Shown piece after piece: positions 31,755 to 36,718 of a stretch of DNA of 64,000 nt (positions within the stretch are counted from its first letter, which is position 1; the number at the start of each line of letters is the position of its first letter). The notes under the pieces are model-generated. The model did no database searches. It had not been told where the DNA came from and saw nothing but the letters and a program-made list of their open reading frames with translations. A program made the position numbers and the translations under genes. Source of the DNA: Myxococcota bacterium (GTDB taxonomy: Bacteria; Myxococcota_A; UBA9160; JAFDDA01); assembly GCA_965228475.1 (NCBI GenBank), contig OZ245817.1, forward strand, positions 3,412,209-3,476,208, given 5' to 3'.

Positions 31755-32627
31755 ATGCTGGCCCCGGCGGATCGCCGCCGGGAGGCCAGCATGGGTGTAT
31801 CGACGGAGCGATGGCAGGCGGATGCGGCGAGCGCTGCGCCGCCGGCGGCCGCGGGCGCCACGCCGCGCTCGCTCTCTCCCACCGCGCGCCGCGCCTTCAC
31901 GATCTGGACGGTCGTCTGGTGGAGCGGCGTCGTCCTCGCCGGCGGCCTCTTCTACGGCGGCGCGCTCGATTTCACGACGAGCGCCAAGGCCTCCCTCTAC
32001 GGCGTCAGCATCTGGCTGAACGGCTGGCTGCTCGCCTACTGGGCCCGCAGCCGGGAGGCGCGCTCCGACCTCGACCTCCTCCACGACTGCCTCGTGCTCT
32101 GGATGGTCTCCTACGCGATCACGAACCTGGCCTGGGAGATCCCCTGGGTGATCCTCTCGCCCTTCGTCTTCGACGGCCTGCACACGCTCGACGACCTCGT
32201 CGCCCAGACGGGCTACATGCGCTCGAGCCTGCCGAACATGTACTTCTGGGTGCTCTCGGCCTTCGGTTCGGTCGACCTCCGGACCGTCAACCACGACCCG
32301 ACGTTCTACTGCGTCGAGCTCTTCGCCTTCTTGAACCTGGCCACGACGGCCGCGTTCTTCCACCTGCACCGGAAGCGCTCGCCGTACCGGTACCTGATCC
32401 CGCTGATCGGCTGCGGCGAGCCGATCGCCGCGACCTTCATCTTCTCGTTCTCCGAGGTCTTCGGAGGCTTCGCGAACATGCCGGGCGGCATGGCGGACAC
32501 GCTCCTGGCCCTGGTCTGGACCCAGTACCAGTACCTGGTGTTCCCGCTGATCCTCGGCGGCTTCGCCTTCCGGCTGCTGCGCGAGGACCTGCGCCGTGAG
32601 GCGGTGGAGAAGGCCGCGCGCGCCTAG
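31755..32627 (+). CDS. Multi-pass membrane protein, possibly EXPERA/EBP-like
   Basis: 290-aa ORF with at least five hydrophobic segments. The start is uncertain; MGVSTERW at 31791 is also possible. See findings for the EBP-like stretch. Tail-to-tail CTAG overlap with the peroxiredoxin gene. Confidence 0.6.
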   Translation: MLAPADRRREASMGVSTERWQADAASAAPPAAAGATPRSLSPTARRAFTIWTVVWWSGVVLAGGLFYGGALDFTTSAKASLYGVSIWLNGWLLAYWARSREARSDLDLLHDCLVLWMVSYAITNLAWEIPWVILSPFVFDGLHTLDDLVAQTGYMRSSLPNMYFWVLSAFGSVDLRTVNHDPTFYCVELFAFLNLATTAAFFHLHRKRSPYRYLIPLIGCGEPIAATFIFSFSEVFGGFANMPGGMADTLLALVWTQYQYLVFPLILGGFAFRLLREDLRREAVEKAARA

Positions 32628-33097
32628 AGGGCGGCGAGGATCGAGTCCGCGTCGGAGACCTCGAACTTCATCGGCGCCTCCACGGCGACGTGCTTCACCA
32701 CGCCGTCCTCGGCCACGAGGGCGAAGCGCTGGCCGCGCAGGCCGAAGCCGATGCCCGTGCCGTCCATCTCGAGACCGAGGGCCTTCACGAGATCCCCGTT
32801 GCCGTCGGCGATCAGCTCGACGGCGTCGCCGGCGCCGCGGTCCTTGCCCCAGGCGTCCATCACGAAGGCATCGTTGACGGCGGTGCAGACGATCGAATCC
32901 ACACCCTTGGCCTTGATCTCGGCCGCCTTCTCGATGAAGCCCGGCAGGTGCTTCGCCGAGCACGTGGGCGTGAAGGCGCCGGGCACCGAGAAGAGCACGA
33001 CCTTCTTCCCGCCGAAGAGTTCGTCCGTCGTCACGTCGGACATGTCCGTCCGCTTGAGCTTCACGCTGGGAATCTTTTCACCGACCTGGATGGGCAT
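32624..33097 (-). CDS. Peroxiredoxin (Prx5-like, atypical 2-Cys)
   Basis: ATG 33097 with AAGGAG 6 nt upstream. KKVVLFSVPGAFTPTCSAKHLPGF contains the PGAFTPTC peroxidatic motif. Confidence 0.9.
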   Translation of the reverse strand: MPIQVGEKIPSVKLKRTDMSDVTTDELFGGKKVVLFSVPGAFTPTCSAKHLPGFIEKAAEIKAKGVDSIVCTAVNDAFVMDAWGKDRGAGDAVELIADGNGDLVKALGLEMDGTGIGFGLRGQRFALVAEDGVVKHVAVEAPMKFEVSDADSILAAL

Positions 33098-33129
33098 CGC
33101 TGGCTCCTTGTGGTTGCGGGAACGCTGGA

Positions 33130-33843
33130 TCATACCAGGGCAGGCCGTTCATCCCAGGTCTCCCCATCCAACGTTCGGCCGGTCCGCTTCTTTTGCACAC
33201 CGCCCCACTGTTTAAAGAAGAACGGTACGCCGCGTGCAACACACCGGTCGCGAATACTGCGGACCCACTCCGCCTCGATGGGCCTCGCACCAGGCCCCGA
33301 TTCGCCGCCAACGATCACCCAGCCAATACCCGCAAGCGGCAACCGACGGATCGGACCCAGGAGCGGCTCAACGGAGAGGAAGCGGAGCCTAGCGGGCACC
33401 TGTTGCAGGTCGCGAACCCGCTCGACGTAGTCCTTGTTTTCGACGCTCACCCCCATCCAGAGATTGCGAGGCCAATCGAGCTCGGGAGCGATCTCGCGCA
33501 GGCGCTCGGAGCGTTTCGTCAGCACCTGGAACACGTGCTGATCCGCCCGCTTGATCGTGTCGAACACGGCGCGGATATAGTCGGTTGGCACGTCGGCATG
33601 GAAGAGGTCGCTCATCGAGTTGACGAAGATCACTCGCGGCGTCGCCCACCGAAGCGGCAGCTCCAGCAGATCGGGCTGGAGCGTCGGGCGGAAGCCGTTG
33701 CGGTAGCGGTGCTGCCCCATGGCATGCAGTCGCCCAGCCATGCGTTCCGCGTAGCAGAACTTGCACCCGGGGCTGATCTTCGTGCAGCCCGTGACCGGGT
33801 TCCACGTCGCGTCGGTCCACTCGATCGGGGAGAGCTGGGCCAT
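33130..33843 (-). CDS. Three-Cys-motif Gp37/Gp68 family protein (DUF5131, Pfam PF07505)
   Basis: 237 aa. [30 protein letters not shown] carries a Cx6Cx2C motif. [14 protein letters not shown] and [10 protein letters not shown]...[11 protein letters not shown]-type blocks also fit the family as I remember it. AGGAGG overlaps the tcmP stop 10 nt upstream. Confidence 0.85.
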
Positions 33844-33853
33844 GCCGCGCCTC

Positions 33854-34687
33854 CTAGAAAGGGAGATTCATCTGGGGATTGCTGGACTTGCGGGCTTCGC
33901 GCCAGAATTTCTTGCCCAGCTCGTGCTGGCTGAAGAACCCAAGATGGTAGATGGGTCGACCTCCGTCCTTGGAGCTGATGGCAACCGTTTCGTCTGGCCC
34001 ACCGTAGAGAAAGCCACGCTCGCGCATCGAACGGCCGAACTGATCGACGATGAAGTGGCCAAAATCTCCGGTCGTCTCGGCGCGCAGATCCTTCCACAAC
34101 GGATTTCCGAGAAAGTCTGCAACGACATTGTTCCCAGGTTCCGAATAGACGCCCTCGTTGCGATGAGCGTCCATGTAGGACGAGATGAGGACCAGAAAAT
34201 CCATGCGTCCTCGCATCAGCTGCTCGACAGTCTCGAAGCGCAGATTCTTGAGGTTGAATGGATCCAGGACACAGAAGGACAGGACCCCGCGGCCACCGAC
34301 GCGAGGCGGGAGTTCGGCCACAACCTGCGCAGCAAGGTCGTTTGAGTCGCCCTCCAGGATCCGTACGTCCCGGCCCGGATAGTCACGCTCTACGCGATCC
34401 CGTAACGCAGCCACACAAGTAGAATCAATGTCACAGAAGATGTAGCGATCGAAGGGATCGCGAACGGCCAAGGCCAAGAGCGTCGACGTCGATACGATCC
34501 GCTCCGTTTCTCGGATACGTGCACGGCCGGCGCCCGCGAACAGGTCAATGTAGACCCGCGACCACTTCTTCTTCATCGAGGTCGCGAACATCTGAGCGTA
34601 GTTCGAGATCAGGCGGTACTTCTGCTCGGACCACGGCCCGACCGCGGGCGTATGCAACCCATCGTCGGCGAGGCTGGGGCTCGGCAC
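33854..34687 (-). CDS. tcmP: Three-Cys-motif partner protein TcmP (TIGR04474-like), methyltransferase-like fold
   Basis: GTG 34687 with GAGGAGG 8 nt upstream. [20 protein letters not shown]...[13 protein letters not shown], then FCVLDPFN. The position directly upstream of a Gp37/Gp68 gene is the defining context of TcmP as I remember the TIGRFAMs entry. Confidence 0.7.
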
Positions 34688-34689
34688 TG

Positions 34690-34800
34690 CAGCGGCCTCC
34701 TCTAGCTCGGGGCTGCTAGAAAGTACGAAAACTCTATATTTTCGCTATTTTTTCGTCATTTCACTGCGACCCAACGATCAAGCGCGGCACAAACATACGC
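34690..34800 (-). promoter_or_regulatory. AT-rich upstream region of the tcmP operon (probable promoter region, no motif assigned)
   Basis: The line 34741-34800 counts 29 G+C out of 60 (48%), against about 67% in neighbouring genes. It contains ctatattttcgctattttttcgtcatttc. No convincing -35/-10 pair could be placed. Confidence 0.3.
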
Positions 34801-34938
34801 CAGGGCTTCATGCCAGCCTCAAGGTCTCGGCCAGCCGCTCTTTGACGGCAAAGTGGACGCGCCCGTGCAGCCGATCGAACGACATCGGCGCGAGTCTAGT
34901 CCTCGGCTCGCGGGAGCAGAAGCGATTCGCTCGAACGG

Positions 34939-36615
<1,677 letters not shown>

Positions 36616-36718
36616 GGGGCGGAACGTAGCGGGCCAGGGAGCGTCTCTCTAGCCACGACGACCGTCGTCCGTCGAGTCTTCGGGCATCGGGTAGACTGCG
36701 GGGCGATCGGAGGTCCGG

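Follow-up and report, generated by a model that had tools for sequence, protein, structure and literature searches.

A horizontally acquired tcmP-DUF5131 gene pair between ettA and prx in a Myxococcota bacterium, a candidate S-adenosylmethionine-dependent nucleic acid modification module

The window, a 64,000-nucleotide (nt) stretch of contig OZ245817.1 from a Myxococcota bacterium, contains an islet of two genes coding for TcmP (a three-Cys-motif partner protein) and a DUF5131 (Gp37/Gp68) protein, which lies between the housekeeping genes ettA and prx. An initial annotation, made from the DNA letters alone, placed two minus-strand genes between a peroxiredoxin gene and ettA, and both the open reading frames (ORFs) and the identities of the flanking genes are as it described. 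The islet and its flanks are organized as follows.

33854..34687, minus strand: tcmP, coding for a three-Cys-motif partner protein of 277 amino acids (aa) with a class I S-adenosylmethionine (SAM)-methyltransferase fold; GTG start
33130..33843, minus strand: DUF5131 (Gp37/Gp68) gene, coding for a 237-aa protein of a radical-SAM subgroup
33844..33856, minus strand: tcmP-DUF5131 junction, read directly from the sequence
34688..34765, minus strand: tcmP leader, containing the ribosome-binding site and, within an AT-rich stretch, an imperfect palindrome
34939..36615, minus strand: ettA, the upstream flanking housekeeping gene, outside the module (TIGR03719, 973 bits; G+C content at third codon positions [GC3], 0.945)
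32624..33097, minus strand: prx, a Redoxin-family peroxiredoxin gene and the downstream flanking housekeeping gene (PF08534, 2.6e-37; gene call of 157 aa)

The tcmP and DUF5131 ORFs do not overlap and are separated by 10 nt. The DUF5131 gene starts with an ATG at 33841-33843, and its AGGAGG ribosome-binding site (33850-33855) overlaps the TAG stop codon of tcmP (33854-33856); tcmP itself has a GAGGAGG ribosome-binding site at 34696-34702. The genes were initially described as translationally coupled, and the short gap together with the overlap of stop codon and ribosome-binding site makes coupling a plausible prediction.

The DUF5131 protein matches PF07505 over its full length (residues 5-234; E = 3.3e-101; 338.3 bits against a gathering threshold of 28.9), as well as phrog_2045, and contains the cysteine triad C20-x6-C27-x2-C30 (CX6CX2C; 33754-33786) by which it was first recognized as a Gp37/Gp68 protein. 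DUF5131 is curated in SFLD and RadicalSAM.org as a subgroup of the radical-SAM superfamily, Megacluster-5-2, for which the CX6CX2C variant of the cluster-binding motif has been noted, and Megacluster-5 also contains spore photoproduct lyase (5-3) and MJ0683-like proteins (5-1) (PMC9477430). The similarity to a radical-SAM-type cluster-binding site pointed out initially is thus a documented hallmark of the subgroup. Conservation was evaluated in two sets, one of 50 close homologs and the other of 12 diverse proteins that include phage and plasmid members, both paired and solo. Residues C20, C27, C30, G179-G-E-S-G183 (GGESG; 33295-33309), and K211-Q212 are invariant in both sets, N75-S-M-S-D79 is invariant in the close set with S76 and D79 only being retained across the diverse set, and T109-K-R111, S157, and E159-P160 are also conserved. 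The closest non-self relative is 85% identical. An AlphaFold2 (AF2) model (predicted local distance difference test [pLDDT] score of 85.7) has an alternating beta/alpha arrangement resembling a partial triosephosphate isomerase (TIM) barrel, and its Foldseek neighbors include NifB, spore photoproduct lyase (template modeling [TM] score of 0.42-0.46), lipoyl synthase (LipA), and SuiB, together with designed TIM barrels; searches of solved structures by sequence, with either the single sequence or a profile, gave no match. The protein is predicted to be a radical-SAM enzyme, an assignment for which curation and the motif give good support and with which the fold is consistent. The sole NCBIfam model that it touches is TIGR04471 (radical SAM mobile pair protein A), which similarly describes a mobile, paired radical-SAM gene, but the score of 81 bits is far under the cutoff of 355 and membership is ruled out. 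A C-terminal KKxxGRxLDGxxWD tail was considered as a pairing-specific motif and rejected, as it is also present in solo phage forms.

The TcmP protein matches TIGR04474 with 124 bits (cutoff of 53), with residues 18-267 aligned to profile positions 1-260 of 263, in agreement with its initial identification, and it has no Pfam family at E ≤ 0.01. The family is of moderate size (4,683 representatives at E ≤ 0.001, of 1.84 billion); the closest non-self relative is 62% identical, and none of the best 150 is a fusion. The AF2 model, built from a 60-sequence alignment (pLDDT of 93.5; predicted TM score of 0.91), has a class I SAM-methyltransferase fold. The top 50 Foldseek matches in the PDB are all of this type, many of them solved with SAM or S-adenosylhomocysteine bound (probability of 0.99-1.0), and the BFVD matches are also mostly methyltransferases. 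The best solved matches are RlmJ, the DUF519 homolog 2oo3, and Trm1, followed by EgtD, CmoA, and others, with E values of about 1e-6, TM scores of about 0.5, and 11-14% identity; no solved structure was matched by sequence, with the single sequence or with the family profile, in a hidden Markov model (HMM) search of the PDB. RlmJ is the 23S rRNA m6A2030 methyltransferase, and Trm1 forms m2,2G26 in tRNA. The positions of the main TcmP motifs are as follows.

34619-34621, minus strand: invariant K23
34526-34546, minus strand: motif I, DLFAGAG (within YIDLFAGAG)
34424-34438, minus strand: motif II, FCDID
34256-34264, minus strand: motif IV, DPF (within LDPF)

Conservation was examined in 60 close members and in 6 very divergent members (25-30% identity) from phages, plasmids, and pSymA. 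Both sets retain K23 in the N-terminal helix, D48-x-(F/Y)-x-G-x-G (motif I), D/E86 (motif II), D142-(P/Q)143-(Y/F)144 at the motif IV position, and W198-R199, and because these methyltransferase motifs are conserved in close and divergent members alike, the cofactor pocket of TcmP looks functional. The methyltransferase-like motif I read initially from YIDLFAGAG is therefore present, conserved, and located in a class I fold. The proposal of LDPF as motif IV stands in part: it lies directly after strand beta-4 (residues 135-141), where motif IV is expected, and is conserved as D-(P/Q)-(Y/F), but it has one proline and does not conform to (D/N)PP(Y/F). RlmJ of Escherichia coli (DUF519/PF04378), the best structural match, has a similar motif I, Y-[IL]-D-x-x-AGAGR, and both proteins have an Asp-Pro-aromatic motif after beta-4, which is DPPY in RlmJ and DP(Y/F) in TcmP; RlmJ is a stand-alone housekeeping enzyme, unlike the paired TcmP. 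Membership of TcmP in the RlmJ family was rejected, with PF04378 matched by 1 of the 60 members (E = 0.17) and an hhalign probability of 13%, and the model instead suggests that TcmP is shaped like, or works like, an RlmJ/Trm1-type enzyme without belonging to those families. Two candidate catalytic cysteines of TcmP, C85 and C139, were also discarded, being invariant in the close subfamily only and not family-wide.

The two genes stand out from their surroundings in composition. The G+C content is 0.592 for tcmP and 0.646 for the DUF5131 gene compared with 0.699 for the window, and GC3 is 0.73 and 0.80, respectively, compared with 0.93-0.96 for six flanking genes and a mean of 0.895. The lowest-G+C stretch of 834 nt in the whole 64 kb is tcmP (z = -3.6), and the islet is the sole G+C trough in a coarse profile. 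The initial spot counts of 53-55% G+C reflected a real contrast with the flanks but sampled local minima, the gene averages being higher. The windowed G+C and codon-usage comparison proposed at that stage bears out the contrast: when 33 non-overlapping, coding-like ORFs are ordered from the lowest GC3, or from the greatest codon-usage distance (B = 0.451 and 0.336, compared with 0.20 ± 0.07), the two genes take ranks 1 and 2 each time. A G+C content of tcmP below that of its flanks recurs at all 10 homologous loci measured.

The islet is an insertion of roughly 1.6-1.7 kb. A search with the EttA protein followed by contig look-ups found the closest EttA orthologs, at 85-89% identity, on contigs that share the gene order of the window on both sides, the common order being DAO oxidase, Peripla_BP_2, NAD_binding_2, two small genes, a Mo-oxidoreductase, ettA, prx, and an aminotransferase. 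In three related Myxococcota genomes ettA is followed by prx after 111, 216, or 167 nt (loci L093/L094, L095, and L096, respectively), with neither tcmP nor a DUF5131 gene in between, and it is because of these empty ettA-prx junctions that the pair is recognized as an insertion and that the horizontal acquisition first suggested by composition is established. Nucleotide homology to the empty-site relatives ends at ∼34948 and resumes at ∼33099. Two features describe the site.

33098..34938: insertion bracket, 1,841 nt from the ettA stop codon to the prx start codon, compared with 111-216 nt in the relatives
33129..33136, minus strand: surviving copy (GGTATGAT) of a conserved -10-like element identified by intergenic comparison, overlapping the DUF5131 stop codon

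In the empty-site relatives the -10-like element is GCTATGAT, GCTATCCT, or GCTATGCT, located ∼30 nt upstream of prx (L093, 9750-9800; L095, 6720-6760; L096, 9810-9850; compared with 33095-33140 in the window), and it is a putative promoter element. The right-hand edge of the insert is placed at GGTATGAT because this conserved element survives there. Everything upstream of the element has been replaced by the insertion, which may have cost prx its -35 region. Neither a target-site duplication nor terminal inverted repeats could be found at the insert, where there are only short imperfect repeats consistent with chance, and no tRNA gene or recombinase accompanies it.

The AT-rich tcmP leader presumably came in with the cassette. 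Its imperfect palindrome has arms at 34719-34731 and 34750-34762 and reads GAAATGACGAAAA...TTTTCGTACTTTC around a TATAG-rich core (34712-34765, minus strand). The leader may be a promoter/operator that arrived with the insert; a scan of the islet, including the leader, found no match to a sigma-70 consensus promoter, and the islet with its leaders matches no Rfam family. At the other end, the start of prx is most likely the ATG at 33097, rather than position 33133, which places it 32 nt past the DUF5131 stop codon and with an AAGGAG ribosome-binding site. There is no terminator-like site between the pair and prx (33130 to 33097), and prx is thus possibly now cotranscribed with the cassette by read-through; the two terminator-like matches in the islet scan are both within coding sequence and at the rate expected by chance.

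The pairing of the two genes is strict, with a DUF5131 gene adjoining tcmP at all 18 TcmP loci examined, which were drawn from chromosomes, plasmids, phages, and IMG/VR contigs and whose contexts were examined manually. Throughout the close subfamily tcmP comes first and DUF5131 second, and the intergenic gap is 1-12 nt in five of six codirectional homologous pairs measured and 134 nt in the sixth (L106). At the same loci the two proteins differ in their relatedness to the window copies, with TcmP sharing 26-59% identity and DUF5131 sharing 43-82% (for example, 55% and 82%, 53% and 80%, 49% and 68%, and 26% and 61% at individual loci). Judged by these identities, TcmP evolves much faster than DUF5131, an asymmetry that fits a conserved catalytic subunit with a diversifying specificity or recognition subunit.

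DUF5131, alone or with TcmP, is found in bacteria, haloarchaeal viruses, temperate phages, and plasmids, and is present in 181 phage records. Six phage loci were sampled, and in four of them (Bipper, prophiGD53-3, phi1026b, and PhiCh1) DUF5131 is solo and longer, lies in an early/replication module, and has no TcmP by HMM search. These solo forms keep all of the core motifs. Genes for ASCH-domain proteins, HNH endonucleases, and a DNA methylase are repeatedly close to them (L099, phage Bipper gp79-82; L102, PhiCh1 gp65-71; L100, prophiGD53-3 gp19-23), which may point to a nucleic acid modification role on the phage side, distinct from that of the TcmP-paired form. A tblastn search with TcmP matched 2 of 50,697 phage records, but the near absence of TcmP from phages that this implies is an artifact of TcmP divergence, since HMM searches reveal phage TcmPs: the Gordonia phage "methyltransferase" gp43 and the neighbor of a Synechococcus phage DUF5131 gene are both TcmPs. 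Current labels conflict, in that a Gordonia phage TcmP is called a "methyltransferase" (L098, 4737-5861) and a Mycobacterium abscessus prophage DUF5131 protein an "RNA methyltransferase," neither of them on experimental grounds. The pair was initially thought to be phage derived, and DUF5131 is indeed common in phages and the pair is present in some temperate phages; however, viral collections rarely contain the window-type TcmP subfamily, and the islet has no phage-like flanks.

The contexts of homologous pairs are varied and rich in defense and mobile genes. In Geobacter, a SoFic gene is directly upstream of the pair (E = 4e-91), whereas in a second genome, whose TcmP is 100% identical, a retron type I-C RT-Toprim gene is directly downstream, and a third with the same TcmP has yet other flanks; identical TcmPs with different flanks across genomes support mobility of the cassette. 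One pair is near AbiEii, Gp49/HTH toxin-antitoxin genes, and an RtcR-RtcB-Hen1-Pnkp RNA-repair cluster, and another is near Dcm, Vsr, MTaX1, and an MmeI fragment, together with a DpdE/ZorD-like SNF2 helicase. PDC-S31 is also among the defense neighbors, one pair neighbors a phage-type integrase and another an rve transposase, and the closest DUF5131 relative is accompanied by an N6/N4 methyltransferase, a 1,757-aa helicase, AAA_21/15 plus DUF4276, UvrD, and AbiEii. On an Acidovorax plasmid (L002) genes for a DNA methyltransferase, a DEAD helicase, and a GIY-YIG nuclease precede a DUF5131-TcmP-TcmP array that is followed by a PIN gene, and a Burkholderia plasmid pair sits in a transposon. These plasmid versions (L002, 6691-7974; L003, 5610-6881) have three genes, which code for DUF5131, for a long (∼425-aa) TcmP paralog, and for a short TcmP, and the long paralog in Acidovorax has a C-terminal GMT-like winged-helix domain (PF22560); only the short TcmP type is encoded in the window. 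On pSymA of Sinorhizobium meliloti 1021 (L107, 1250750-1263226), the validated defense gene hna is directly followed by a short tcmP, which is convergent with a DUF5131 gene and a long TcmP-like paralog; hna and the adjoining TcmP gene are listed as one putative transcription unit and are coupregulated (PMC12445080). The pair of Gordonia phage Jablanski is in a lysogeny module between integrases, with RelBE and an immunity repressor. Taken together, the neighborhoods carry the signature of a mobile, defense-island cargo that is usually found among defense or mobile genes, in agreement with the PADLOC listing of the pair as a candidate (PDC-M41/M30). Defense or mobile neighbors are typical of the ∼18 contexts inspected by hand but not of the window copy.

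The pair also corresponds to a cataloged defense candidate, PDC-M41 of PADLOC, with adjacent matches of TcmP to the A model (1.9e-19) and of DUF5131 to the B model (3.4e-114), and by these matches it is an ordinary member of a known, uncharacterized kind. It shares the A-then-B order of all close homologs and shows no structural difference from PDC-M41 and the related PDC-M30, and it likewise does not differ from the TIGR04474/PF07505 gene pair, with both curated cutoffs passed and the defining adjacency present. The three-gene plasmid and pSymA version differs in adding the long, winged-helix-bearing TcmP paralog, which is absent from the window.

We propose with moderate confidence that the pair is a horizontally acquired, two-subunit, SAM-dependent nucleic acid-modifying module that is probably defensive. 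In this proposal, DUF5131 would be the conserved catalytic subunit, a minimal radical-SAM enzyme that would bind a [4Fe-4S] cluster through its CX6CX2C triad and cleave SAM there, giving a 5'-deoxyadenosyl radical. TcmP would be the rapidly diversifying targeting subunit, its RlmJ/Trm1-like Rossmann fold binding SAM and the target. The D-P-(Y/F) loop of TcmP would hold a flipped-out base, such that TcmP selects the target nucleotide and, in a predicted complex of the two proteins, presents it to DUF5131 for radical chemistry; TcmP might additionally transfer a methyl group itself. DNA is a likelier target than RNA, because of the winged-helix domain (PF22560) of the long TcmP paralog and the restriction-modification-like neighbors, with RNA kept in consideration because the nearest solved folds of TcmP are RNA methyltransferases. 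The cassette would move between genomes, mostly into defense islands, with a role in anti-phage or anti-mobile-element immunity, which is the likeliest role because the cassette travels and usually lands in such islands.

A more specific form of this proposal, which we regard as possible and put forward tentatively, is a split radical-SAM/methyltransferase-fold enzyme of an undescribed class, in which TcmP flips a DNA base and the DUF5131 radical installs, or damages through, a new modification such as methylation of an unactivated carbon or a cross-link. The chemistry would itself be the immune mechanism, TcmP variants would set specificity, and the solo phage DUF5131 would be ancestral or counteracting.

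Several known systems offer precedents for parts of such a scheme. Spore photoproduct lyase belongs to the same Megacluster-5, is among the best structural neighbors of DUF5131, and acts on DNA, although it has a CX3CX2C-type motif compared with CX6CX2C and DUF5131 is ∼100 residues shorter; no sequence-level match of DUF5131 to spore photoproduct lyase was found, and the Foldseek E values are weak. The class A radical-SAM methylases RlmN and Cfr combine radical-SAM chemistry with transfer of a SAM methyl group onto a nucleic acid base, and cfr is mobile, but these are single polypeptides with a canonical Cys motif, and the comparison is a functional analogy, with homology not detected. Prokaryotic viperins and the Ophion system (OpnA-B-C) place a radical-SAM enzyme within an immune system, as proposed for the pair, and Ophion is a radical-SAM anti-phage system (bioRxiv 10.1101/2025.09.30.679545). 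Their partners differ from TcmP (Ophion has PHP and PRTase, and viperins have either a kinase or no partner), as do the radical-SAM subgroups, and a PADLOC scan of the pair gave no match to viperin or Ophion systems.

Several observations weigh against a defensive, TcmP-guided modification module. The window cassette is alone among housekeeping genes with no other defense gene nearby, and the two-gene form has no nuclease or other obvious effector. DUF5131 occurs without TcmP in phages, so the enzyme is not strictly TcmP dependent and may serve phages rather than hosts. At the protein level, the motif IV of TcmP is without the second proline of the canonical (D/N/S)PP(Y/F/W) and is a resemblance rather than a match, the methyltransferase Pfam models are not reached (the 60 members give only sporadic matches, at E ≥ 0.079), and the link to RlmJ is at the fold level only (the hhalign comparison with the E. 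coli protein covers just motif I, over 28 columns, at the 13% probability given above). The structural matches of DUF5131 are weak, with none at E ≤ 0.001 by Foldseek. No experimental test of any TcmP/DUF5131 member was found in the literature, in accordance with the initial statement that no activity had been described, and phage protection by PDC-M41 is unreported; PDC entries of PADLOC are candidates only, with 4 of 8 tested candidates protecting against phage in one study (PMC12881386).

The absence of an effector nuclease from the two-gene form would also be expected if the pair were protective rather than defensive, placing an unusual epigenetic or anti-restriction mark on the DNA of its own carrier, by which the mobile element or its host would evade restriction, as an orphan "M" and not an immune effector. 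The methyltransferase-fold partner with its intact SAM pocket and the restriction-modification-like neighbor genes fit this reading, and solo DUF5131 genes in phage early/replication modules beside a DNA methylase, HNH, and ASCH genes are as expected of self-modification or anti-restriction. We nonetheless consider a protective role rather unlikely, as the temperate-phage pair lies in a lysogeny/immunity module typical of prophage-expressed defense, PADLOC derived the pair as a defense candidate, and a self-marking enzyme has no obvious need for a fast-evolving TcmP.

Less probable again is a mobile, Cfr/RlmN-like modification of rRNA or tRNA that alters susceptibility to antibiotics, toxins, or phage anticodon nucleases. 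The nearest solved structures of TcmP, RlmJ and Trm1, are RNA methyltransferases, but this similarity is just a TM score of about 0.5 at the low identity noted above, and the winged helix of the long paralog and the restriction-modification-like neighbors point to DNA. M. abscessus prophage annotators call DUF5131 an "RNA methyltransferase," although this is not an experimental label. One homologous pair is beside the RNA-repair cluster described above, and the islet itself adjoins ettA, which codes for a ribosome-associated ABC-F factor; however, the adjacency to ettA is incidental, because ettA-prx is the ancestral junction, and no other examined pair is near ettA.

Very improbable is a reading of the pair as a passenger that is decaying or without function, the remnant of a recent insertion with no present role in the genome. 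In favor of this, the two genes form an isolated islet that has no mobility genes, target-site duplication, or partner defense genes, and the sequence upstream of prx was displaced when they were inserted. Against it, neither ORF is truncated, both have good ribosome-binding sites, all of the residues that are invariant in 50-60 homologs are retained, and the 85% identity of the nearest DUF5131 relative indicates strong purifying selection.

Both families, their pairing, the radical-SAM assignment, and the defense candidacy as PDC-M41 are already cataloged, and the pair in the window alone reveals nothing not yet flagged in databases. Added here are the demonstration of the insertion, the methyltransferase fold and family-wide motifs of TcmP, the rate asymmetry, and the recognition that the phage "methyltransferases" beside DUF5131 are TcmPs. 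No known activity is assigned to the DUF5131 radical-SAM subgroup or its TcmP partner; should the pair prove to be an immune system, anti-phage defense would gain a new kind of radical chemistry, and should it prove to be a modification enzyme, a mark new to DNA or RNA may come to light. The islet is a clean natural experiment, a minimal cassette with its own leader at a defined site, with related empty sites, intact ORFs, and conserved residues, and as a minimal and intact cassette at a defined site it is a good construct for heterologous testing.

Other features of the region include a 25-codon ORF (MSFDRLHGRVHFAVKERLAETLRLA) in the ettA-tcmP intergenic region (34808-34885, minus strand), whose status as a gene is unsupported. 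Beside prx is a gene for a 278-aa multi-pass membrane protein without a Pfam family (31791-32627, plus strand), a patchily distributed conserved unknown whose relatives (L012-L091; 55-70% identity) are in Myxococcota, Halieaceae/Pseudomonadales, Mycobacterium, Nocardia, and Binatia, in contexts that always differ. When this protein was used as an anchor in GTDB genomes, 80 loci were found, none with prx or ettA nearby, and these relatives were judged too distant to show an empty site. The nearest relatives of a gene neighboring the islet are in Myxococcota metagenome-assembled genomes.

The best non-self EttA match (P0122; 1,249 bits) is on a 4,079-nt contig (L092; JGI 3300043311), where it is called as 749 aa in a different context, with an MtrB_PioB-like gene upstream, an opposite-strand gene downstream, and no prx; this may reflect a miscalled start, a different arrangement, or a chimeric contig. 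Among the relatives that share the gene order of the window, a histidine kinase gene is inserted between the Mo-oxidoreductase gene and ettA in L096 (6148-7950; compared with 36616-36718 in the window), and the region downstream of prx varies, with a sulfatase gene in L093 (10275-11636), nothing in L095 (7248), and the membrane protein gene in the window (31755-32627). The ettA-prx neighborhood looks like a local hotspot of gene gain and loss in this lineage.

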